Below, in pieces: positions 7,269 through 57,954 of a stretch of DNA of 64,000 bases. The stretch's first letter is position 1. Every line of letters begins with the position of its first letter. Source of the DNA: an uncultured Enterobacteriaceae bacterium. Its GTDB lineage: Bacteria > Pseudomonadota > Gammaproteobacteria > Burkholderiales > SG8-39. The stretch covers positions 2,270 through 66,269 of the forward strand of contig CAZTXP010000037.1 of assembly GCA_964617355.1 (NCBI GenBank). Direction: 5' to 3'. The position numbers and the translations under genes were made by a program. A model generated the notes under the pieces. The model made no database searches. It saw only the letters and a list, made by a program, of their open reading frames with translations, and was not told the DNA's origin.

Positions 7269-8248
7269 CAGGGTTGCTCCAGCCGGATGCCGCGCGAGCG
7301 CACCACGCGCCCGAAGCGCTCGTACTCGGCGCGCATGAACTCGGCGAACTCCGCCGGCGTGCCGCCCGACACCTCCCAGCCGAAGGCCGAGATCTTCTGG
7401 TGCACCTCGGTATCCTTCGCGAGGATCGCCGAGATCTCGCGCGACAGGCGCTCGCGCACCGCCGCCGGCACGCCGGCCGGCGCGACGATGCCGTACCACG
7501 AGCCGCCCTCGGCGCCCTTCAGGCCGAGCTCGGCGTAGGTCGGCACGTCGGGGATCCAGCGCGCGGCGCGCTGCGCGCCGCCGTAGGCGAGCACCTTCGC
7601 GCGGCCGTCCTTCTGCATCGCGGCGGCATTGATCGGGCTCGACACGATGAGATTCACCTGTCCGCCGAGGAAGGCGCTCGACGCCGGCGCCGCGCCCTGG
7701 AAGGGCACGTGCAAGAGGTCGGTGCCGGTGGCGGTCTCGAAAAGCGCCACGGCGACGTGCGCCGTGCTGCCGATGCCCCAGGTGCCGTAGGTGACCCGGT
7801 TCGGCTCGCGCTTCGCGGCGGCGACGAGATCGGCGACGCTAGCCACCTGCAGGTCCGGGCGCGCGAGCAGCGCGAACCAGACGGTGCCGACCAGCGTGAT
7901 CGGCTCGAAGCCCTTCTGCGCGTCGTAGGGCAGGCTGCGGTAGACGTGCGGGTTGATCGAGTGCGTGTCCGCGGTGGCCATCAGCAGCGTGTAGCCGTCC
8001 GGCGCCGCCTTCGCCGCCTGCTGCGTGCCGATGATGCCGTTCGCGCCCGCGCGGTTCTCGACCGCGACCGGCTGGCCCAGGCGCTTCGCGAGTTGCTCCG
8101 CCACGAGGCGCGTGGCCGAATCGGTGGCCGCGCCCGGCGGCCAGGCGACCAGGATGCGCAGCGGCTTCTCCGGGTACTGCGCCAGCGACGGCAGCGCGGC
8201 GGCCAGCAAGGCCAGCAGTGCGATGAGTCGGGTCACTCGTGCGCGCAT
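7268..8248 (-). CDS. Bug/TctC tripartite tricarboxylate transporter substrate-binding protein
   Basis: Signal peptide, YPEKPLRILVAWPPG, VENRAGANG, PDGYTLL, HVPFQG. Confidence 0.92.
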   Translation of the reverse strand: MRARVTRLIALLALLAAALPSLAQYPEKPLRILVAWPPGAATDSATRLVAEQLAKRLGQPVAVENRAGANGIIGTQQAAKAAPDGYTLLMATADTHSINPHVYRSLPYDAQKGFEPITLVGTVWFALLARPDLQVASVADLVAAAKREPNRVTYGTWGIGSTAHVAVALFETATGTDLLHVPFQGAAPASSAFLGGQVNLIVSSPINAAAMQKDGRAKVLAYGGAQRAARWIPDVPTYAELGLKGAEGGSWYGIVAPAGVPAAVRERLSREISAILAKDTEVHQKISAFGWEVSGGTPAEFAEFMRAEYERFGRVVRSRGIRLEQP

Positions 8249-8417
8249 GAGTTCCTTTCGAGTCTCGCCCGGAGCGGCGGACCAGCACCGCAGCTTATCC
8301 AAAGCCCCCGCGCGAAAGTTGCCGATATGCGACACGCTTCTGCATTTTTGCGAAGCCGCACCGCGACGGCGCGAACTGCACCTCGGCGGGGCGGGCGGGC
8401 ACGGACGCGCGGGGCGC

Positions 8418-9485
8418 TCAGGCCCTGGCGCGAGGCGCGCCGCGACGGGCCGGCGCCGGACGCTGGGCGTGGCGCGACGCGCGCCGCGCCGCCGACGGCG
8501 TCTCGCGGAAGCGCTGCGCGAACGCGCGCGAGAAGTGCGAGCAGTCGCCGAAGCCGCACTCCAGGCCGATGCTCGTGACCGGCAGGTCGGTATGCTCCAG
8601 CATCCACTTGGCGCGCGCGAGGCGCAGGTGCAGCCGGTAGTCGCGCGGCGTGAGGCCGACGTCGGCGACGAAGCGCCGCTCCAGCTGCCGCGGGCTGATG
8701 CCGAGCTGCCCCGCGACGCCCGCGAGCGAATCCGCCTGCCCGAGCTTCTGTTCGATCAGCAGCATCGCTCGGCGCACCAAGCCATCCGTCGCCTGCCGCG
8801 TGACTACCGATTCGGGCTGGGGCGTATTGGAGGGCAGCGGCTGGTCCTCGATCAGGATGCGCAGGCTCTTCGCGGCCAGCGCGCGCCCGCAGTGGCGCTC
8901 GATCAGGTGCGCCGCGAGGTGCACCACGCTCGTGCCGCCAGCGCAGGTCATGCGATCGCCGTCGACCACGAACATGCGGTTGGACGCGAGACGCAGCGCC
9001 GGGAACTCGGCCTCGAAGTCCTCGCGATGGAACCAGCTCACGCACACGAGGTACCCGTCGAGCAGACCCGCGCGCGCCAGCACGAAGGAGCCGGTGCACA
9101 GGCCGACGAGCCCGACGCCGGCGCGCGCCGCCGCGCGCAGGAAGGCCTGCGTGCCCGGCAATACCTTCTGGCCGCCGTGCAGCAGGCCTCCGACGACCAC
9201 TATGTAGTCGAAGCGCGAAGGATCTTCCATCGGAGACCAGGGCTTCACCGCCGCGCCGCAGCTCGAGGCCACAGGCGCGTGCGCGTCGCCGAGCACCGCC
9301 CATTCGCATTCCAGCGGCCGGCTGCGATCGCCCTCGTCGGCGGCGAGGCGCAGCGCGTCGACGAAGCCGGCGAACGCGGTGAGCGTGAACGACGGCGTCA
9401 GCACGAAGCCGACGCGCAGCTTCGGCGTCGCCGCCTGCGGCGGCGGCGTCGGGCGGGGCGTCCTGGAGGGCTTGCGCAGGCTCAT
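8418..9485 (-). CDS. GlxA/GbdR-type AraC regulator (DJ-1/GATase-like sensor plus HTH)
   Basis: [28 protein letters not shown], then AraC HTH ([21 protein letters not shown]); divergent from soxB. Confidence 0.9.
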
Positions 9486-48311: not shown

Positions 48312-48719
48312 TCAGTCGCGCACGGCGGCGCGCAGCGCGGCCTTCTGCGCGTCGTCGGGATTGCCGAAGAAGCGCTCATTCTTGCCGTCGCGCACCAGCA
48401 ATCCCCAGGCCTTCGCGCCGTCGGCCGTGAACAGCACGAAGAAGCGGTTGTCGCCGCAGTCGTGCGTCTTGCACACGTTGCCGACGTAGTGCGCCGCGCC
48501 GCCCACCGTGACGCGCTTGCCCGGCGACGAAGGGCCGTCCTTGGTCTTCGCGTACCGCGCGAGCCACGCATCCACGCCCTTCTCGCCCGCGAGCATCGCG
48601 TTCCACGACTTGAGGTACGCCGGCTTGGCGAGGACGTCGAAGAGGTACTCCTGCGCGAGCGCGACGGTCGACGCGAAGGCGAGCGGGAGGCAGAGCGCGA
48701 GGCGGGTGCGAAGGGTCAT
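48312..48719 (-). CDS. ivy: Ivy-like lysozyme inhibitor
   Basis: Signal peptide and CKTHDC loop (Ivy signature CKPHDC), followed by the usual ..LF....K.WGLL strand. Confidence 0.78.
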   Translation of the reverse strand: MTLRTRLALCLPLAFASTVALAQEYLFDVLAKPAYLKSWNAMLAGEKGVDAWLARYAKTKDGPSSPGKRVTVGGAAHYVGNVCKTHDCGDNRFFVLFTADGAKAWGLLVRDGKNERFFGNPDDAQKAALRAAVRD

Positions 48720-48815
48720 GGTGGCGTGGACCGTGGAAGGTTGAAAGCTTGCGTGAGCGGGGAATCGAGATACCGACTGTACCGGATGAATAAGGCTGCT
48801 GCGGCCCACCCTTCG

Positions 48816-50327: not shown

Positions 50328-50608
50328 CGGAGCCCCCATTCGAAGCGAGAGGTAACGAGATCAGGCCAAGCCTCGGCCAGTTCGACCCTGCGTCGGCAAG
50401 CATATAGGCGCCGATGAAAAGATTCACTGGTACAAATCACCATCGGCCGGACTTTGGTCTCCGTCCATCAGGCGGCTTTCGGAACCCGTCACGGCTGATT
50501 CCTGAGGCACGTCGCGTAGAAGGGCGACTGCGCCACGCCCTATCTAGAACAACGTCGACGCCGCGCGCGAATGCTGTGTCCGGGCCGACGATATCGAAGC
50601 ATCCATGG

Positions 50609-51058
50609 TCATGCCGGATCCCGCGTGTACACGATGAACCCAAGATGCTTCGCCACCTTGTCGTACAGCGCGCGCCCGGCCACGTTGCCGACCTGCGTCT
50701 GCCAGTACACCCGCTGCGCGCCCGCGGCCCGCGCCTCCGCGTACACGCCCTCGATCAGCGCCCGCCCGACACCGGCGCCACGACGATCCGGGCGAGTGAA
50801 GAGATCCTGCAGGTAGCAGACCGGCTCGATCTTCGTCGTGCTGCGATGGAAGAGATAGTGCACGAGGCCCACCAGCCGCCCCTCCGACTCCGCCACCAGC
50901 GCGAACACCGGCTCCGCCGGATCGAAGAACCGCTCCCACGTCGCCGCCGTGATCGCCTCCGGCAGCGCCGTCTCCCCGGCGCGGCCGTAGAACGCGTTGT
51001 AGCCGTCCCAGAGGGGGCGCCACTCGGAGTAGTCAGCGCGGGCGATAGATCGGATCAC
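50609..51058 (-). CDS. GNAT N-acetyltransferase
   Basis: W..LW.GYN.FY, CYLQDLF..P..RG.GVGRALI, VYWQT...N..GR.LYDKVA. Confidence 0.92.
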   Translation of the reverse strand: MIRSIARADYSEWRPLWDGYNAFYGRAGETALPEAITAATWERFFDPAEPVFALVAESEGRLVGLVHYLFHRSTTKIEPVCYLQDLFTRPDRRGAGVGRALIEGVYAEARAAGAQRVYWQTQVGNVAGRALYDKVAKHLGFIVYTRDPA

Positions 51059-51645
51059 GATGGAAGCAGGCCGTTGTCTGAGGAACGTTCAACTCCGCCA
51101 ATCGAAGCCCCTGCAGCGATGGGTTGGGCCTGAGCTTCGAGAGTACGAACCAACATCCCTGCGCCAGTTAGCTGCCCGAGGAGAATTGCGATGTCCGATC
51201 GAAACCTCTCCGCCATGGCCTCCCTATCGCTTGGGTCAATCTCAGGATCGTTAAGCAACGGCGCCAATTCCTTGCGAAGGCTCAGAAACCGAATGACACG
51301 ATCCCTAAGCTTGGGGCTATCAAGTTTATGCGCCAGATCGTTCCGTATCGAGTTCAAGGCGTCGATTAGTGGCCACAGGCCCGTCCATACAATGTGTCCA
51401 GAAAGCGCCCGCGCGACCCTCGCTTTGACGAAGAAGCCGATCTCGATTCCGTTCAGGTGTTCTGGTTGTCTACAGTAGAAGCGGATCAGATCATCGAGCG
51501 CCTCGTCTGCGAGCAGATGCCCTTTCAGGGCTATGAGGATGAGGTCCTTTCCAAGGGGCAAATGCGTCCGTACCCGCTCAATGCGAATCTCCGCTTCCGC
51601 ATCGATCTGAAGTGGAACCCTGTCAGACACTGATTTCAGGTCCAA
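51055..51645 (-). CDS. Cassette protein, helical, with R-x4-H (HEPN/MtlR-like) motif
   Basis: TTG start lies inside the GTTGGAC core; LKGHLL..E and RNDLAH motifs; 3' end runs through a decayed attC. Confidence 0.7.
   Translation of the reverse strand: MDLKSVSDRVPLQIDAEAEIRIERVRTHLPLGKDLILIALKGHLLADEALDDLIRFYCRQPEHLNGIEIGFFVKARVARALSGHIVWTGLWPLIDALNSIRNDLAHKLDSPKLRDRVIRFLSLRKELAPLLNDPEIDPSDREAMAERFRSDIAILLGQLTGAGMLVRTLEAQAQPIAAGASIGGVERSSDNGLLPS
51080..51129 (-). repeat. Decayed attC site inside the ORF 3' end
   Basis: Minus strand GCCCAAC CCATC GCTGCAGGGG...GAACGTT; R'' intact, R' degenerate (GTTCCTC), centre shortened. Confidence 0.5.
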
Positions 51646-51744
51646 CGTCCACGGCCGCCAGCGCGCGCAAGGTGTGACGACTCACGATGTACGTCGCTCG
51701 CACGCACGTCCGAGTGGGTCGTGTTGCTAAACCGCAGGTTCAGT
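51640..51744 (-). repeat. attC site
   Basis: Minus strand R'' ACTGAAC ... R' GTTGGAC; internal dyad ACGACTCAC/GTGGGTCGT. Confidence 0.68.
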
Positions 51745-51761
51745 CGCCTCTGGCTCATAGC

Positions 51762-52124
51762 TCAGCGCGGCTCGCGCCAACCATTAAGTCGTCCGCCGAG
51801 GAAGTCCGCACTACCGCCCCTGGGGTAAGTCCACAAGGTTAGAGACGAGCTGGCATCGACCCTCTGTGGTTCGCCCAAGATGGAACGCACGTCGCTCTCC
51901 GTCATTCCGCGCCTAAGGGAGCGCCAGCTCTCCATTTGCCGCCAGCCGTCCGACTGACCAGGCACGGGCTTAGGGGCACTAGAGGGAGACGCGGGATACG
52001 TACCTTGCTTCTCAAGTTGCTCTACGCGACGTTCAAGGTCGCGAACGCGATCATCGAGGGACTGCGCAGACGCTACGGCGCAGAACACCGTGCCCAGAAC
52101 GATGCCAGCTAGACGCTCAATCAT
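51762..52124 (-). CDS. Cassette-encoded exported protein (coiled coil plus SmpA/BamE-like repeat)
   Basis: Signal peptide MIERLAGIVLG..ASAQ; W..L..GMT..DV..ILGEP. Confidence 0.65.
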   Translation of the reverse strand: MIERLAGIVLGTVFCAVASAQSLDDRVRDLERRVEQLEKQGTYPASPSSAPKPVPGQSDGWRQMESWRSLRRGMTESDVRSILGEPQRVDASSSLTLWTYPRGGSADFLGGRLNGWREPR

Positions 52125-52145
52125 CCTGAACCCCCGTTCTATGCA

Positions 52146-52244
52146 GCTTAACGTTCGCCATGACCGGATGCCGGCGCGCAAAGCGCGACGAGTACCCAAG
52201 AGCGGCTACACTTTTGTGCGCTCCGGTAGATTGCCGGGTTATGC
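52146..52244 (-). repeat. attC site
   Basis: Minus strand R'' GCATAAC (contains the upstream TAA stop) ... R' GTTAAGC; ACCGGA/TCCGGT dyad. Confidence 0.75.
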
Positions 52245-52841
52245 CGCCGTTTCATAGGTCGACCTATAGGCCTCCCGTAGTTTGATCGCGAGATCGTTAG
52301 ATTTGACCACCGATGCAATTCCTACCCCTGCCAGCAACGACAGCGTCGCGGATGACGTGAGCAGACCGGCGACATGCGCCGGTTTGTAGCTCTGAACAAT
52401 CTCGTCCCTTGTAGTTCTCGCCATTACTTGAATGATTCCACCGTGAGTGAAGTCACAGAGATTCCGCCACAACTTGCTCTTCATCCTCCGGAGCTCGCCA
52501 CGGGTGAAAGCCTCCCGCGCTTCCAGTTGCTGGATCAAAACTCCTGATTTAGGCGGCTCAGAACCCCGGAGGAAGTTGGCGATCTCTCGGTCCGACGCAC
52601 AGAGGTGATACCACGCCCCTCGCAGGTACGCCTCAAACTCTGGGCGGAAAAGTGCGAAGGCCGATCCGCATAGGTCATGCTCAACTAAGGTGTGAATTGC
52701 AGTGTAGTGCTCAATAGCCAGATGATGCAGTGACGCTGACACACGGGCCCGGTTCGTTGTGGAGAAACTGACGCCGTCGATCAATGACGTCGACTCCATC
52801 ATCCAACGTAGCGACTTTTTGAATGCGTCGTCAAGCGGCAT
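52239..52841 (-). CDS. Cassette hypothetical protein (DUF6988/DUF5677-like, helical)
   Basis: HLAIEH..AI, SAFALFRP.FEAYLRGAW, LCDFTHGG; family name from recall. Confidence 0.6.
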   Translation of the reverse strand: MPLDDAFKKSLRWMMESTSLIDGVSFSTTNRARVSASLHHLAIEHYTAIHTLVEHDLCGSAFALFRPEFEAYLRGAWYHLCASDREIANFLRGSEPPKSGVLIQQLEAREAFTRGELRRMKSKLWRNLCDFTHGGIIQVMARTTRDEIVQSYKPAHVAGLLTSSATLSLLAGVGIASVVKSNDLAIKLREAYRSTYETAA

Positions 52842-52890
52842 AGCGTCAACGCTGAGGCGCGCGCCGGTCTTTGCGCGTCGCCTCCGACGC
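52838..52890 (-). repeat. Decayed attC site
   Basis: Hairpin GCGTC..GAGGCG.CGCG/GCGCG.CGCCTC.GACGC; R' reads GCTATGC, one change from the GTTATGC that would pair with this cassette's own GCATAAC; R'' lost. Confidence 0.55.
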
Positions 52891-52891
52891 T

Positions 52892-53719
52892 CTATTGGCG
52901 TGTACTTTGACTAGAGGCTGCCGCGAGTGCATCACCGAACACCTGAGCGTAGTCCACGTCGAAGGGCTTTGAGACGACAACGAGTTTCCCGGAACCACTA
53001 AGATCCTCCAGTAAGGCCTTTGCTGCTTCGTGATCGATGGGAAGGGGAATCCTCCCAGGGCTTTCGATGTGCGCGGAGTGCGCGAGCCCTGCCGCATAAT
53101 CCGCCAGCAGAAGTAGAGGCTCTTCCTCCTCAGTTGCCACGAGAACCTCGCGAGTCTCGAATCTGAAGCCACGCTCTGCCATGCGGGGTTGATGGCGATC
53201 ACTCCGTTCAAAAAAATATCTGAACGCAGAAAGATTCTCCTCGCCCTGAATGTCCGAATCGCACACTATCGTTCGCTCGACAATTTCCAGCCCCCGGTAG
53301 TCGAGAATGCGGGTTCCCCGGCTAACCTTCACCGCGTGACCGAGCGCAATCCCGTATGCATGCGCGAGAAGGCCGAAGAGAGCGACGTTCGCAGGCTTAA
53401 CGAAGCCTGCCGGCTTACCGTCCTGCGCAACGATAGCGTCCTGGAGAGGCTTTGCGGCATCCCAAAATTCAGGCCAGCGTTCCGGGTCTTTGGTCATTGA
53501 AACAACTGCGACTGATGCTGCCCCGGCCATCAGCTTGACTGCAGCGTGTGCGTGCTCCATGCCGCAATCGCGCCACTTCGGAAGTTTGCGAACGTGATCT
53601 CGAATCGCTTCTGCACGCGCACTGTGAATGGCTACCGCTGCCCCTGTCATGCGATCACTTCCGGCGCTGGCTCTGGACCGGCGGCCTGCGATGTCGGCAA
53701 CTATCGTGTAACGGCTCAT
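52892..53719 (-). CDS. Cassette protein, DUF3800-like RNase H fold
   Basis: N-terminal IVADIAG, central VCDSD, C-terminal LLLADYAAG acidic motifs. Confidence 0.6.
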   Translation of the reverse strand: MSRYTIVADIAGRRSRASAGSDRMTGAAVAIHSARAEAIRDHVRKLPKWRDCGMEHAHAAVKLMAGAASVAVVSMTKDPERWPEFWDAAKPLQDAIVAQDGKPAGFVKPANVALFGLLAHAYGIALGHAVKVSRGTRILDYRGLEIVERTIVCDSDIQGEENLSAFRYFFERSDRHQPRMAERGFRFETREVLVATEEEEPLLLLADYAAGLAHSAHIESPGRIPLPIDHEAAKALLEDLSGSGKLVVVSKPFDVDYAQVFGDALAAASSQSTRQ

Positions 53720-53732
53720 CGCATGTTGTGCA

Positions 53733-53813
53733 CTCTAACTTTTCGCTTTTGCCGCGCGGCGCGATCGGCGGAGCCGAAGGCGTAACGCGTCGAGCAATAA
53801 CGCGGCGTTAGAT
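53733..53813 (-). repeat. attC site
   Basis: Minus strand R'' ATCTAAC ... R' GTTAGAG; inner dyads TTTTGC/GCAATAA, CGCG/CGCG, TCGGC/GCCGA; 81 bp. Confidence 0.82.
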
Positions 53814-53814
53814 C

Positions 53815-54114
53815 TCATGATCCCTTCTTCCATTTGTTGGCCGGAATCCACCTCTCCTCTTCCTCAAGGAATTTGAATAGGTCGTCATACTCGTTGGAGC
53901 CGGACGTCGTTTGATCCTCTACGCTGCAAAAGAAGCACTGCTCCTCGGGACGCCATACGACTTGAGTTATGCCGCGTGATGTGAACTGGGATGTCTCGAT
54001 GCCGAGCTCAACAAATGGTGCAAATGGGAGTTCCAGCTTGCGAAAGAACGACATTCCGTGCTGCTTGCGCTCGGAATCCTTCCATAGCGACACAGTAAGC
54101 ACAACGGTGTACAA
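53815..54114 (-). CDS. Cassette hypothetical protein (99 aa)
   Basis: ORF fills the space between two attC sites exactly; TTG start a few nt after GTTAGAC. Confidence 0.65.
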   Translation of the reverse strand: MYTVVLTVSLWKDSERKQHGMSFFRKLELPFAPFVELGIETSQFTSRGITQVVWRPEEQCFFCSVEDQTTSGSNEYDDLFKFLEEEERWIPANKWKKGS

Positions 54115-54117
54115 GAT

Positions 54118-54198
54118 GTCTAACGTCCCGGGTGTGGCGCAAAGCGCGCATAGCGCAGCGGTGCGCGAAATTGGTCAACTGCCAGCCGGCTGTTAGAT
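54118..54198 (-). repeat. attC site
   Basis: Minus strand R'' ATCTAAC (contains the TAA stop) ... R' GTTAGAC; CCGG..TGGC/GCCA.CCGG and GCGCGCA/TGCGCG dyads; 81 bp. Confidence 0.85.
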
Positions 54199-54651
54199 CT
54201 CACCCAGCCACCTGCGAATCAGCCTGTAGGAGCCAGATGTTGCCTCACGAAGCGGTGTGATCGTGGCTGTCATTACCAGATGCTCCCACTCACGCGCATT
54301 GGTGACGAAGTCTCCGTAGTAACGCACCTCGTCGACAGGGCGGAAATGTCGGAACCATACTCCAAGTTCTGGCGCTGTGGCCCGGATGTAGTTGTAGGGT
54401 CCTGAGATTCGCGCAAGTGCAAACGGAAAGTGGTGTGTGAAGAGAAGGACCCGGTCGCCCACATCCATCTCATGTGCAAACGCCCAGTAATTGCGTTGAT
54501 TTGTAGGGAGTGCTTCCTGCCTAACCGTCATTAGATCAGGAACGTCTTCCTCAAAGTCCAAGCCTATATATCCCGAAGTCAAGCTTTCCACCGTGTGCTT
54601 GATCGCACCCTCAGACTCACTTGGGTGCAGTTGCATTCGCCAGTAGGTCAC
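54193..54651 (-). CDS. Cassette protein, PUA/EVE-like domain
   Basis: YWRM, F..EM.VGDRVL, G.Y.YI, HFRPV pattern; GGAG RBS. Confidence 0.6.
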   Translation of the reverse strand: MTYWRMQLHPSESEGAIKHTVESLTSGYIGLDFEEDVPDLMTVRQEALPTNQRNYWAFAHEMDVGDRVLLFTHHFPFALARISGPYNYIRATAPELGVWFRHFRPVDEVRYYGDFVTNAREWEHLVMTATITPLREATSGSYRLIRRWLGEI

Positions 54652-54685
54652 TGTGTCTCCGATCGCGCGATAGCTTTGCTGTGAG

Positions 54686-54747
54686 GTCTAACGTGTCGTT
54701 CAGCGGCGCTCGCTCGCGAGGGGCCGCTGCAACGGATTCTTGAGGGC
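54686..54747 (-). repeat. attC site with degenerate R''
   Basis: Minus strand GCCCTCAAG AATCC GTTGCAGCGG...CCGCTGAAC GACAC GTTAGAC; L''/L' pair with one extra base. Confidence 0.75.
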
Positions 54748-55491
54748 GTCACCTTCCTGAACAATCAAGGCTGGTGGCGCCGCATACAGCAAAGATCGCA
54801 GAATCGGCCCACGAAAGCCCGTCTTCTCCCGGATTCGCACCTTTAATGCATCTACGTCGGGTTCAGGCATTCGAGGGTCTATCATGATCTGATCGATAAA
54901 TGCATAAGGGTCGACGCTGTAACAGTACAAGTCGCCAACCGTTTCTGCGGCACTGTGCTGGAAGTAAAGAAGCCTTACTTCGCGCTCGTGTTTGAATGCC
55001 GGTCTCTTGACTAAGAGGGTTTCCGCTGAGACTCGCGCCCGCAGTCGGTGCGCCCCTGGGAACCAGCTGCTAGCGAATGCGCTAAGCCGTCTGCTGGGGA
55101 GGTATCGAACCTTGCCGATAAACGCCTGGATCTGCGCATAGTCTCCAAGCACTGTGCTGAGACTCTCTGCCAACGTTTGGATAGTCGAACGTATGCGAAT
55201 TGCGCTTCGATTGGGGGAGTAGATGCGCCAAATTGCATCTGAGGACGATTGCAGGGTCCAGCATTGACCGTAGAACTGATCGTGAAAAGAGAACTGCGCG
55301 AGCTGTCCTGTCTCCAGTCTGATGCGAGCGCGCAGAATGAAGTTTTCAAAAGGGTCATCCCACTTCCTAGGCTTGACTAGAACGTTCTGTCGGTTCTCAA
55401 ACAGTTCAAAGAGTCGCTCCACTGGAACAATTCGATAGATATGCCGAGATCGCATGGCTCTCGGTATCTCAATGTAGTTGTCGTCATCCAT
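54700..55491 (-). CDS. Cassette protein, DUF2971-like
   Basis: YR, P..WDDPFE, CWT....SDAIW.IYS, K...F.HEREVR; reads through the attC. Confidence 0.68.
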   Translation of the reverse strand: MDDDNYIEIPRAMRSRHIYRIVPVERLFELFENRQNVLVKPRKWDDPFENFILRARIRLETGQLAQFSFHDQFYGQCWTLQSSSDAIWRIYSPNRSAIRIRSTIQTLAESLSTVLGDYAQIQAFIGKVRYLPSRRLSAFASSWFPGAHRLRARVSAETLLVKRPAFKHEREVRLLYFQHSAAETVGDLYCYSVDPYAFIDQIMIDPRMPEPDVDALKVRIREKTGFRGPILRSLLYAAPPALIVQEGDALKNPLQRPLASERR

Positions 55492-55511
55492 CGCCCGAGG
55501 TTCAGCGTCGC

Positions 55512-55545
55512 GCCCAACGTTGTATAGATCGCCTAGCAGTCGGGA
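55512..55545 (-). other. attI-like recombination site
   Basis: Minus strand TAGGCGATCTATACAAC-GTTGGGC ahead of the first cassette, with no partner R'' palindrome upstream. Confidence 0.5.
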
Positions 55546-55699
55546 TGCAATCCGACTGATCTAGCGAGTCTGTCCGATTCCGCATTGGAATCAAGTGCAA
55601 ACGAACATCTCCCGGAATCATCTGGTCCTGTCCAACGCTGTTCGTCAGGATTTCATTCGCCGAATCAGCCTTCTACACCCGCGCGGGTGGTCTCGCGCC

Positions 55700-55993
55700 A
55701 GCGCAATGTGCGAAAGCGCACCGGTTTCCCCCTTCGCCCCCGCCGCGCGCGACGCGGCGCGCCGGGAAAGAAGGCGAGGATTGTCCGAGCCCTGAGCGGC
55801 CCTTGCGAGGGGCGAGTTCCGCAGCCGCCCGGCGCGTCGCGGCGCGCGTGGTGCCCGTCGCGCCGGCAGGCGCGGCGGCGGGGGCGCAGGGGCGTGCTTT
55901 CCGGGCGTCACCTGCTTTGCACGAGCAAAGGAGGTGACCGCAGGTGCGGGGCGCGCAGCCCCGCGTAGCGAAGCGCGCAGCGCGAGAGCGCGC
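55700..55993. ncRNA. Highly structured non-coding element (multi-branch hairpins; repeat/MITE or structured RNA)
   Basis: 55729-55746 pairs with 55875-55892 (17/18); inner stem near 55747-55766/55828-55847; TCACCTGCTTTGC-ACGA-GCAAAGGAGGTGA and GCGGGGC-GCGCA-GCCCCGC hairpins. Confidence 0.5.
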
Positions 55994-56440
55994 CTACTCC
56001 AGTTCCCGCAGCTTGATGCCTTCCATGTTCTGCACGATCGGCTTCCCGCCGGCGCAGAGCACCGAAGCCTCCTCGCGGCCGTTGATGACGACCGTCACCC
56101 CGCCGCCATCCGGATGCTTGTCGTCCAGCCGGTCCATGCCCCAGAAGACGTCGTAGACGGTATTGCCGTTGGGCACCTGCACGGAATACGAGATGCTGCG
56201 CCCGATGCCCTTCCACTGGCGCGTGGACGCATCCTTGCGCAAGGCGCGCACCACGATCTCCGGCTTCCTGCCCGGCACGCCGAACGAATAGTCGATCGTC
56301 TTGCCGGAGTCGCAGACCTCGATCTGCTTGCCGCGCGAGGTGAGGCACGAGAAGACCGTCTCCGTGCCCTTCTCGCACGCGGCGAGCGCGAGCGACGGCC
56401 CGAGCGCGACCGCGGCCGCGACCACCCACCGAGCGATCAA
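55994..56440 (-). CDS. Hypothetical exported protein with Cys pairs
   Basis: Signal peptide ending LALAAC; VFSC...GKQIEVC, YSFG; TTGA overlap with pap. Confidence 0.65.
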   Translation of the reverse strand: MIARWVVAAAVALGPSLALAACEKGTETVFSCLTSRGKQIEVCDSGKTIDYSFGVPGRKPEIVVRALRKDASTRQWKGIGRSISYSVQVPNGNTVYDVFWGMDRLDDKHPDGGGVTVVINGREEASVLCAGGKPIVQNMEGIKLRELE

Positions 56441-57954
56441 GACTTCTTCGCCTTCTTCTTCGCACCCTCGATCGCGTTCTCGACCGCGTCCACGACCGTC
56501 TTCACGATCTTGGCGCGCGCCCAGTACTTGTCGTTCGCCTCGATCAGCACCCACGGCGCGTGCGAAGTGCTGGTGCGCTCGATCATGTCGGACGCGGCCA
56601 CCTGGTAGCCGTCCCACTTCTCGCGGTTGCGCCAGTCCTCGGCGGTGATCTTGAACTGCTTGAAGCGCGTGCGCTCGCGCATCTTGAAGCGCCGGTGCTG
56701 CTCGGCCTTGGAGATCTGCAGCCAGAACTTCAGCACGATGGCGCCGTTCTTGGCGAGCTGCTCCTCGAAGTCGTTGATCTCGGCGTAGGCGCGCATCCAG
56801 TCGGCCTCGGAGCAGAAGCCCTCGATGCGCTCGACCAGCACGCGCCCGTACCACGAGCGGTCGTAGATCGTGTAGCGCCCCTTGCGCGGCACGTGCCGCC
56901 AGAAGCGCCACAGGTAGGGCTGCGCGCGCTCCTCGTCGGTGGGCGCGGCGATCGGGATCACGTTGTAGAGCCGCGCGTCCAGCGCCGCGGTGATGCGCCG
57001 GATCGCCCCGCCCTTGCCGGCGGCATCCATGCCCTCGAACACGCAGACCACGGTGCGGTCCTTGAACGCCGGGTCGCGCGTCAGGCGCGCGAGCTTCGCC
57101 TGTTGCTTCTCGAGTTGCTTGGCGTACTTCGGCTTCGGCATCGCGGCCGAAAGATCCATGCGATCGAGGATGCGCACGCGGTCGGCCGGTTCGGTGAGCG
57201 GCGCGGCGAGCGACGCGGCCATGGGTTTCTGCCCCGCGGCCTTCTGCGCGATGCGCTTCTGCAGCGCCTGCAGGATGGTCTTGCCCACGGTGACGGCGCG
57301 GTACTCGGGGTCCGAGCCCTCGACCACGATCCACGGCGCGGCGGCGGTGCTGGTCTCGCGCAGGGTGTCTTCGCTCACGCGGTAGAAGCGGTCGTACATC
57401 TTGAAGAAGTCCCAGTCGCGCTCGCTGATCTTCCAGCTCGTGTCCGGGTCGCTCTCGAGCTTCTTCAGGCGCTTTCGCTGCGCCTTCTTCGACAGGTGGA
57501 ACCAGAATTTCAGGATCAGCGCGCCGCCGTCGGCGAGCATGCGCTCGAAGTGGTTGATCTCCTCGATCGCCTGCACCTGCTCGGCCTTGCCGGTGCGGTG
57601 GAACACGCGGTCGATGATCGGCGCGGTGTACCACGAGCCGAACAGCATGCCGATCTTGCCCTTCGGGGGCAGCGCGCGCCAGTAGCGCCACATCGGCGGG
57701 CGCTCGCGCTCCTCGTCGGTGGGGTTGTCGAACGCATGCGTGTGGATGTGGCGAGGGTCCATCCACTCGTTCAGCAGGTTGACCGTCTCGCCCTTGCCGG
57801 CGCCGCGCACGCCCGAGATCAGGATGATCACCGGGAACGAGCCGTCCTTGGACAGCGCGAACTGCGCGTCCAGCAGGTCGGCGCGCAGCTTCGGCTCGAT
57901 GCGCTTGTATTCGCCCTTGGAGAGCTTGTGGCCGATCTCTGCAGCTTCGAACAT
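56437..57954 (-). CDS. pap: Polyphosphate:AMP phosphotransferase (class II PPK2, two domains)
   Basis: GAGKGETV and EGMDAAGKGG Walker A motifs, WY, DRSWY, KFWLQIS, N-terminal MFEAAEIGHKL. Confidence 0.93.
   Translation of the reverse strand: MFEAAEIGHKLSKGEYKRIEPKLRADLLDAQFALSKDGSFPVIILISGVRGAGKGETVNLLNEWMDPRHIHTHAFDNPTDEERERPPMWRYWRALPPKGKIGMLFGSWYTAPIIDRVFHRTGKAEQVQAIEEINHFERMLADGGALILKFWFHLSKKAQRKRLKKLESDPDTSWKISERDWDFFKMYDRFYRVSEDTLRETSTAAAPWIVVEGSDPEYRAVTVGKTILQALQKRIAQKAAGQKPMAASLAAPLTEPADRVRILDRMDLSAAMPKPKYAKQLEKQQAKLARLTRDPAFKDRTVVCVFEGMDAAGKGGAIRRITAALDARLYNVIPIAAPTDEERAQPYLWRFWRHVPRKGRYTIYDRSWYGRVLVERIEGFCSEADWMRAYAEINDFEEQLAKNGAIVLKFWLQISKAEQHRRFKMRERTRFKQFKITAEDWRNREKWDGYQVAASDMIERTSTSHAPWVLIEANDKYWARAKIVKTVVDAVENAIEGAKKKAKKS

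Follow-up and report, generated by a model that had tools for sequence, protein, structure and literature searches.

Between positions 51055 and 55545 of a 64-kb stretch of chromosomal DNA from an uncultured high-GC betaproteobacterium (contig CAZTXP010000037.1; the whole stretch of 64,000 nucleotides is referred to below as the window) lie seven co-oriented open reading frames (ORFs) on the minus strand, C1 to C7, one per cassette and separated by gaps of 42-119 nt. GC content is 0.566 across 51108-55517 and 0.53-0.62 in the individual cassettes, as compared with 0.70 in the left and 0.69 in the right flank. A preliminary description of this DNA, made from the sequence alone, had reported the seven single ORFs in lower-GC DNA, all of which are present as stated, and had interpreted the palindromes between them as attC recombination sites of an integron that lacks its integrase. 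Based on the analysis presented here, the element at 51108-55517 is very probably a partly fossilised CALIN (cluster of attC sites lacking an integron integrase), that is, a series of seven foreign, low-GC, integron-type cassettes in a chromosome. Its components, in cassette order, are as follows (aa, amino acids; S1 to S7 denote the attC or attC-like sites).

55518-55524, minus strand: R' core GTTGGGC (G at 55518), start of cassette 1
54692-55517, minus strand: cassette 1, 826 bp, with ORF C1 (54700-55491, 263 aa)
54686-54745, minus strand: S1, attC of cassette 1
54124-54691, minus strand: cassette 2, 568 bp, with ORF C2 (54193-54651, 152 aa)
54118-54198, minus strand: S2, attC of cassette 2, R'' ATCTAAC and R' GTTAGAC
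53739-54123, minus strand: cassette 3, 385 bp, with ORF C3 (53815-54114, 99 aa)
53733-53813, minus strand: S3, attC of cassette 3, R'' ATCTAAC and R' GTTAGAG
52844-53738, minus strand: cassette 4, 895 bp, with ORF C4 (52892-53719, 275 aa; 252 aa on public contigs)
52838-52900, minus strand: S4, attC of cassette 4
52152-52843, minus strand: cassette 5, 692 bp, with ORF C5 (52239-52841, 200 aa)
52146-52244, minus strand: S5, attC of cassette 5, R'' GCATAAC and R' GTTAAGC
51646-52151, minus strand: cassette 6, 506 bp, with ORF C6 (51762-52124, 120 aa)
51640-51744, minus strand: S6, attC-like site of cassette 6, R'' candidate ACTGAAC and R' GTTGGAC (G at 51646)
51108-51645, minus strand: cassette 7, truncated, at least 538 bp, with ORF C7 (51055-51630, 191 aa)
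51108-51129, minus strand: S7, 5' half of the attC of cassette 7 (GCCCAAC CCATC GCT-G-CAGGGG), the 3' half (L', R') being missing

Rfam contains no attC family, and we built covariance models of our own instead, using 15 attC sites curated from eleven class 1 integron regions (the IntI1 query sequence is found at 100% identity on over 5000 plasmids). A model of full-length class 1 attC sites, R1, was overfitted to the aadA-type central stem, returned only GC-rich noise in the window and was discarded. Model R2, based on the cores of 14 attC sites of class 1 resistance cassettes (46 positions and 14 pairs, covering the R and L boxes), recovered class 1 sites, some of them unseen in training, and was used only for harvesting training sites from outside the window. 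In environmental contigs with homologues of C1, C2 or C7 it detects many co-oriented attC sites, among them ten or more in locus L158 (further positive contigs are L163, L120, L097/98, L168, L092, L184 and L189); the three families are therefore in circulation as integron cassettes. Model R3, built from 43 aligned outside sites (class 1 and environmental) and none from the window, was run against the whole 64 kb on both strands with filters off. Its top three matches are S5, S1 and S4, with 34.6, 23.9 and 21.2 bits (E-values of 3.5e-6, 1.3e-3 and 6e-3), all on the minus strand. Outside the array the best match in the window is partial and reaches 12.6 bits, while in a control of 1.12 Mb, mostly GC-rich betaproteobacterial DNA, the maximum is 20.5 bits, again partial, with none at 21 bits or above. 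The preliminary description had held that an attC model without hits at its palindromes would count against it; the three best hits of our own model lie there.

To look for an integrase, the window was searched by tblastn with IntI1 and VchIntIA, two queries that are 45% identical and detect each other at E = 1.6e-99. The search included a low-threshold run over 41-64 kb; the best E-values against the 64-kb window were 0.76-3.2, and neither an intact nor a decayed IntI was found in it, which bears out the earlier remark that no tyrosine recombinase ORF is present. The layout of a complete integron, with intI adjacent to the cassettes and divergent from them, is likewise absent from the window. 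A CALIN is defined by two or more attC sites on one strand, no farther than 4 kb apart, and by the lack of an intI in their vicinity, that is, within 4 or 10 kb (Cury et al. 2016, PMC4889954); here three significant R3 sites lie on the minus strand within 2.6 kb, and because the window has no detectable integron integrase or pseudogene thereof, the array is a CALIN in the sense of these authors. The integrase-less cassette array proposed in the preliminary description is thus supported by attC matches, by the absence of an IntI-like coding sequence from the window and by the positions at which homology to other arrays begins, to which we now turn.

Homologues of three cassettes (C1, C2 and C7) occur in unrelated metagenomic arrays, and for two of these, C2 and C7, the homology with the window starts at G/TT, the crossover of R' (here and below, a slash without spaces within a motif marks the boundary). 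C2 represents a conserved and widespread family, of which 836 homologues were found with identities of 60-89%. Its closest relative, in L183 (89% identity at the protein level), is homologous to the window at the nucleotide level from G/TTAGAC to about 10 nt past R'', has different neighbours on both sides of the cassette, and shares with the window the ends of the attC site (TCTAAC-AGCCGGCTG ... CCGGGAC-GTTAG). The 88 loci with C2 homologues comprise one subset without attC and another whose members open with GTTAGAC/CTCA some 35 nt ahead of the start codon and close with GGTGAG-GTCTAAC, behind which there is an attC site (cassette-type loci L092, L096-99, L105, L108, L120, L158, L163, L165 and L166-169). 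In L088-L091, between the mnmA and HPPK/dNK genes, a C2 homologue without attC is one of a series of genes in the same orientation that are of toxin-antitoxin or defence-like type (BrnT, CAP12-PCTIR TIR, HigB/HigA-like, Fic); the C2 family therefore exists both as a cassette and outside cassettes. L158 (Ga0207665_10004180, 9.6 kb) and L163 are large environmental arrays with all attC sites in the same orientation and a C2 homologue among the cassettes. The attC sites of L158, at least ten in 9.6 kb, are about 100 nt long, no integrase is encoded on that contig, and in both arrays a partial match of 19 nt (16.9 bits) is repeated between the attC sites.

In the case of C7, homology with L184 starts at GTTGGAC, proving that R' of S6 is the start of cassette 7, and the C7 gene of L184 ends in a textbook attC site (GCCCAAC CCGGC GCT-G-CAGGGGACGCGCCGC AAGC GGCGCGTCCCTG-AGC TCTTGC GTTGGGC). 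For C1, the evidence from the cassette start is limited to the position of R': C1 homologues of L189-L194 lie in co-oriented arrays with TIR and DUF2971 genes, and in L189 and L194 a core of the GTTGG type precedes the ATG by 12-20 nt, only the position of R' being conserved with the window. Small clusters that lack an integrase and lie amid housekeeping genes (L092, L184, L195) repeatedly contain C1, C2 or C7 homologues as well, and a total of 725 kb of loci with homologous cassettes yielded no IntI.

The individual sites differ in their state of preservation. The palindromes originally delineated at 52146-52244 (S5) and 54118-54198 (S2) were reproduced exactly by R3, and those of S1 and S4 nearly so (54686-54745 and 52838-52900), the earlier span of the latter, 52838-52890, having omitted R'' at 52894-52900. 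S5, the top match of the whole window, is the best-preserved site; the TAA stop codon of C5 lies inside its R'', and over 83 nt it shares 75% identity with an attC of L184, an unrelated array. S1 consists of R'' CCTCAAG, spacer AATCC, L box GTT-G-CAGCGG / CCGCTG-AAC, spacer GACAC and R' GTTAGAC, with the stop codon of C1 inside the L' arm. It is homologous to the attC sites that follow the C1 homologues of L189 and L194 (shared L box ...CAGCGG / CCGCTG-AAC), in which R'' reads GGCCAAC or GTCCAAC, so that the AAC triplet has become AAG in the window. In S4 (L box GTC-G-GAGG / CCTC-AGC) both triplets are substituted: R'' is CGCCAAT (AAC to AAT), the final T of which opens the TAG stop codon of C4, and R' is GCTATGC (GTT to GCT), which contains the ATG of C5 and is complementary at six of seven positions to GCATAAC, the R'' of cassette 5.

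S2, whose R'' holds the TAA stop codon of C2, is matched by R3 over the full model length with 10.6 bits (rank 6; E = 2.3 in the whole window, 0.21 in a local search). Its unpaired spacers are short (AG / GAC), and its ends are homologous to those of the L183 attC (TCTAACAGCCGGCTG ... CCGGGACGTTAG), which itself scores only 14.1 bits, as compared with 28.6 bits for the attC immediately upstream of it; S2 belongs to a divergent attC subtype. S3 has canonical attC geometry but is not scored by R3. In the predicted fold its R'' pairs with R', and the L box (GTT-A-TTGC / GCAA-AAG), flanked by a 5-nt spacer (GCCGC) and a 6-nt spacer (CGAAAA), pairs at six of seven positions at canonical spacing. 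The rule-based scan for AAC...GTT with L-box pairing that was used for the geometry of S3, and for nothing else, gave 14 matches versus about 21 in shuffled sequences. S6, with its proven R', has a non-canonical left half: a long imperfect central hairpin (51668-51722) is followed by about 30 nt before R', making the site asymmetric, and R3 finds no site there in either the whole-window or a local search. Finally, the palindrome first placed at 51080-51129 amounts to no more than an attC 5' half, for which a local R3 search gives 7.7 bits.

Taken together, R''/R' pairing cores of the form RYYYAAC / GTTRRRY are present in S2, S3 and S5 and absent from S1 (AAG), S4 (AAT/GCT) and S7 (no R'). An L-box stem with an extrahelical base and unpaired spacers of 5-6 nt is seen in S1, S3, S4, S5 and the 5' half of S7, S2 being short-spaced and S6 non-canonical. 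No T-tract terminators were found after the palindromes. The two stop codons that had been noted within R'' boxes, those of C2 (ATCTAAC) and C5 (GCATAAC), are indeed there. Of the two start codons reported within R', the ATG of C5 in GCTATGC is solid but a TTG start of C7 in GTTGGAC is doubtful, since gene callers place the start of C7 at GTG 51630. Complementarity between the first seven nucleotides of a cassette and its own R'', proposed as a sign of integration of circular cassettes, holds at six of seven positions in C2, C3, C5 and C7, but is statistically weak by itself, about 0.3 being expected per cassette by chance in view of the consensus.

At the distal end of the array, homology between the window and L184 stops at 51108, within the attC stem, which puts the junction with host DNA somewhere in 51058-51108. 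Because the divergence falls inside the stem, the distal end of the array was made by deletion within an attC stem and not by an integrase. Beyond 51108 the C7 frame continues to a TGA for about 17 codons that are not homologous to its relatives, and its stop codon overlaps the GTG start of the next gene (GTGA, 51055-51058), which is thus deprived of the upstream region it once had and, judging from this overlap, may be translationally coupled to the foreign C7 gene. The features flanking the array on both sides are:

50609-51058, minus strand: GNAT acetyltransferase gene of host type with high GC, distal flank and not a cassette
55518-55636, minus strand: stretch without ORFs, 119 bp, 51% GC, between GTTGGAC (55636) and GTTGGGC (55518)
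55650-55995: GC-rich non-coding spacer, 346 nt, about 75-80% GC, with nested inverted repeats and a predicted DNA minimum free energy of -127 kcal/mol
55994-57954, minus strand: lipoprotein and PPK2 genes, host-like proximal flank separated from the array by the spacer

The GNAT gene was considered as an eighth cassette and rejected: it has host GC, is followed by no attC and starts at the truncation junction. Further out, an Ivy-family gene (PF08816, inhibitor of vertebrate lysozyme) is found at 48312-48809 with several genes for small secreted or membrane proteins near it, and the 49-51 kb stretch has an intermediate GC of 0.64.

On the proximal side, neither attC nor attI is recognisable upstream of the core at 55518-55524. 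The stretch at 55518-55636, which has no significant R3 match and no similarity to other loci, could be a degenerate or collapsed empty cassette or a remnant of attI. At 55630-55646, GACGAAC-AGC-GTTGGAC has AAC and GTT three bases apart, which we take to be an attI-like simple-site layout; we know of no general model for attI. The spacer at 55650-55995 is unrepeated within the window and has no Rfam match, and it contains the points (55758 and 55805) at which public short-read assemblies break off. The window yielded neither a tRNA nor an Rfam match at gathering thresholds, and 55400-56100 no Rfam match at E <= 1; a search of the minus strand over 50400-56100 found no sigma-70-like promoter and no Pc-like one (Pc being the integron cassette promoter). 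A scan of genome collections based on PPK2 gave a best relative at 85% identity without synteny. The closest PPK2 relative, L015 (CAZTDU010000006.1), comes from a metagenome-assembled genome labelled 'uncultured Enterobacteriaceae'; all other near matches are from Burkholderiales or Betaproteobacteria, and the label looks wrong. Three public Logan contigs with the array are 100% identical to the window, with gene calls concordant except for the choice of start codons.

Several observations weigh against the interpretation of this element as a CALIN of decaying cassettes, or limit its reach. The class-1-only model R2 has zero matches at any site of the window, and R3 does not score S3 or S6 and gives S2 only 10.6 bits. 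Both models are self-made and roughly calibrated, in place of the attc_4 model of IntegronFinder. The absence of IntI is that of the 64-kb window, and an IntI may be encoded elsewhere in the genome. There is no integrase beside any homologous cassette either, and the link to an integron platform is therefore made through attC structure only. As to cassette turnover at the locus, the genome collection contained no close relative to compare with, and the three public contigs are identical to the window.

The AAC and GTT triplets are intact in S2, S3 and S5, and four of the seven sites look impaired, S1 and S4 by mutated triplets, S6 by asymmetry and S7 by being a half-site. Cleavage in attC recombination takes place in the R box, of which the triplets are the most conserved positions, and we infer a loss of activity at these four sites from that importance. 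S2, S3 and S5, in turn, look usable judging from their boxes. Because S1, S4, S6 and S7 would be impaired, plausible excision would be limited to cassette 3 by itself (S2 x S3) and to cassettes 4 and 5 as one block (S3 x S5).

These features suggest the following history. Each low-GC cassette, promoterless and with a single ORF, would have been captured as a circle by integron-type site-specific recombination at G/TT, the cassettes now residing in a high-GC betaproteobacterial chromosome. An illegitimate deletion would have cut the distal attC stem, joining cassette 7 in frame to the DNA up to the GNAT start codon, and decay would also have brought AAC/GTT substitutions at two sites and asymmetry at one. 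The array is immobile on its own, its excision or re-capture requiring an IntI acting in trans on the folded bottom strand (the plus strand of the window) of two attC sites. Since no Pc-like promoter is present, expression is most likely by read-through from the co-oriented lipoprotein and PPK2 genes upstream. An old, decaying element is favoured because the distal site is truncated and cores are mutated, and we regard the array as a remnant in decay and not as an active platform. The CALIN of the preliminary description is thus retained, but not as a pristine one: it has a deletion-made half-site, two triplet-mutated sites and an asymmetric one.

Any of the three standard origins of CALINs would be compatible with this window taken alone: intI may have been lost on the spot, the cassettes may have been split off from an integron elsewhere, or they may have been inserted in trans at a GWT site (PMC4889954; bioRxiv 10.1101/2022.09.11.507474). 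The preliminary description had named a lost intI or one that acts in trans. As a less probable alternative to a decaying remnant, the array may be a detached part of a live integron, with an intI/attI platform elsewhere in the genome that supplies IntI in trans and keeps exchange going. About half of all CALINs share their replicon with an IntI gene (Cury et al. 2016, PMC4889954), the cores of S2, S3 and S5 are intact, and the structured GC-rich spacer where assemblies break would be compatible with a rearrangement point. However, no tyrosine recombinase is encoded in the 64 kb, the array is identical in three independent samples, and the mutated, asymmetric or truncated state of four of the seven sites argues against selection by an active integrase. 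It is unlikely that there never was a local integron and that a visiting integrase, e.g. from a plasmid, inserted a cassette at a GWT site (attG), after which the array grew from the resident attC. Seven cassettes are many for this route, and the distal junction lies inside an attC stem rather than at a G/WT crossover, that end having been shaped by deletion; the proximal junction (...ATACAAC/GTTGGGC) is uninformative. Nevertheless, the route stays alive because homologous cassettes recur in integrase-less clusters, as exemplified by the C1, C2 and C7 homologues of L092, L184 and L195, with no IntI in any of the homologue loci. In addition, IntI inserts efficiently at genomic 5'-GWT-3', the proposed origin of small CALINs and of SALINs, single attC sites lacking an integron integrase (Loot et al., bioRxiv 10.1101/2022.09.11.507474), and neither an intI pseudogene nor attI was found beside the array.

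It seems quite improbable that the array is a working bank of cassettes, used in trans and assembled without a local integrase at a secondary site in the genome, and not a dead remnant. If it were, relatives of the cassettes would spread mainly as small integrase-less clusters, and the attC type of S2 and L183, with unpaired spacers of 2-3 nt, would be a functional variant that current models under-detect. The view that nothing here is related to integrons, the region being an ordinary acquired island of defence and accessory genes and the palindromes terminators or REP-like (repetitive extragenic palindromic) elements, could point to the failure of the class-1-only model, to the rule-based scan, which did not exceed chance, and to the two cassettes that match defence-candidate families. 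Against it, R3 scores at the palindromes, on the coding strand, are unreached in the 1.12-Mb control, the palindromes lack T-tract terminators, and homology of C2 and C7 starts at G/TT, the cassette-type C2 homologues and the C7 homologue of L184 being followed by attC sites that are canonical or detected by covariance models, C1 contributing only the conserved R' position before the ATG. The C2 and C7 boundaries and the R3 matches effectively refute this view, which retains a minimal probability.

As to the cargo, an NCBIfam search with all seven cassette products found nothing, and several cassettes look like anti-phage defence genes by other comparisons. C1, which has 753 homologues, matches the PADLOC family PDC-S31 over its full length (E = 2.7e-86, residues 3-244 on profile positions 3-242 of 245) and, weakly, DUF2971. 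C5 is a DUF6988 protein (PF22491, E = 5e-27) that also matches PADLOC PDC-S52 (E = 1.1e-25), and tblastn against plasmids found it only below 50% identity. C1 and C5 can therefore be regarded as candidate defence proteins by family membership, the families themselves being only candidates. The predicted structure of C2 (mean predicted local distance difference test score, pLDDT, of 77.7) resembles, according to Foldseek, PH1033, MJECL36, VcaM4I and YTH domains (E-values of 5e-5 to 1e-2, TM-scores of about 0.45), and C2 is predicted to have an EVE/YTH-like (PUA-like) modified-base reader fold; sequence searches of the PDB with C2 and C4 were empty. C4 had no family match in the profile libraries, including PADLOC, or by plasmid tblastn, and neither had C3 in the libraries, including PADLOC and NCBIfam, or by plasmid tblastn. 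C6 is a lipoprotein with a signal peptide and weak similarity to BamE/SmpA. C7 has homologues of 178-182 aa with an R-N-x-L-A-H motif (HEPN-type Rx4H) in which R96, N97 and H101 are invariant, and weakly matches CARF_HEPN. A further C7 homologue, in L185-L188 (about 8001-8620), lies on a conjugative element with Tra genes, HipAB, FRG and DUF4238. In this homologue GTTGGGC precedes the ATG and R' of the attC-like tail reads ATT, not GTT; it is another decayed cassette outside an integron.

Two preprints (bioRxiv 10.1101/2024.07.02.601686 and 10.1101/2024.07.02.601719) report that integron cassettes are stores of compact defence genes, and the cargo of the array fits this recent view of cassettes as reservoirs of small anti-phage genes. 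Four short single-gene candidates are among it: the two PADLOC candidates, the EVE/YTH-like reader and the mini-HEPN protein. Furthermore, the array adds an example of cassettes that persist without an integrase, in an uncultured high-GC betaproteobacterium, and makes a path of decay visible, with substitutions in core triplets, stem asymmetry and a deletion in an attC stem that fused a cassette to a host gene. The homologous cassettes, always without a neighbouring integrase, bear on how CALINs arise.

Compared with class 1 arrays (aadA, dfrA, blaOXA), the array shares the G/TTRRRY start, one ORF per cassette, attC sites of the R''-L''...L'-R' type with an extrahelical base in the L box, and stop codons within R''; unlike them, it has no integrase, no 5' or 3' conserved segment (5'-CS, 3'-CS) and no resistance genes, and its sites are missed by an attC model of class 1 only. 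With the sedentary chromosomal (super-)integrons of Vibrio and Xanthomonas it has in common the chromosomal location, the foreign composition, the mostly unknown functions of the cassettes and the defence-like cargo. GC skew is slightly negative throughout the window (1-64000, cumulative -1.7), the plus strand being the C-rich one and carrying the attC bottom strands. This is the arrangement reported for sedentary integrons, with the bottom strand on the leading-strand template. In contrast to sedentary integrons, the array has no detected intI, attI or Pc, comprises only seven cassettes, and its attC sites are heterogeneous instead of forming a homogeneous, species-specific family of repeats. 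SALINs and attG insertions (Loot et al., bioRxiv 2022.09.11.507474) are similar in being integrase-less cassettes amid housekeeping genes, and relatives of the cassettes described here occur in such small clusters; they differ from this array of seven in having one cassette, and its distal boundary is not a GWT crossover. Relative to known CALINs, the distal half-site and the core mutations at several sites set the array apart, as do its host, an uncultured high-GC betaproteobacterium, and its detection with home-made covariance models rather than those of IntegronFinder. It conforms to them in several respects: the co-oriented attC sites within 4 kb number three if only significant ones are counted and up to seven if all recognisable ones are, neither intI nor an intI pseudogene is present within 10 kb, the cassette functions are unknown or unrelated to resistance, and its seven cassettes compare with a reported average of about five. 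The array is thus one more example of a category already known in thousands, with 2961 CALINs in RefSeq genomes (bioRxiv 10.1101/2022.09.11.507474).

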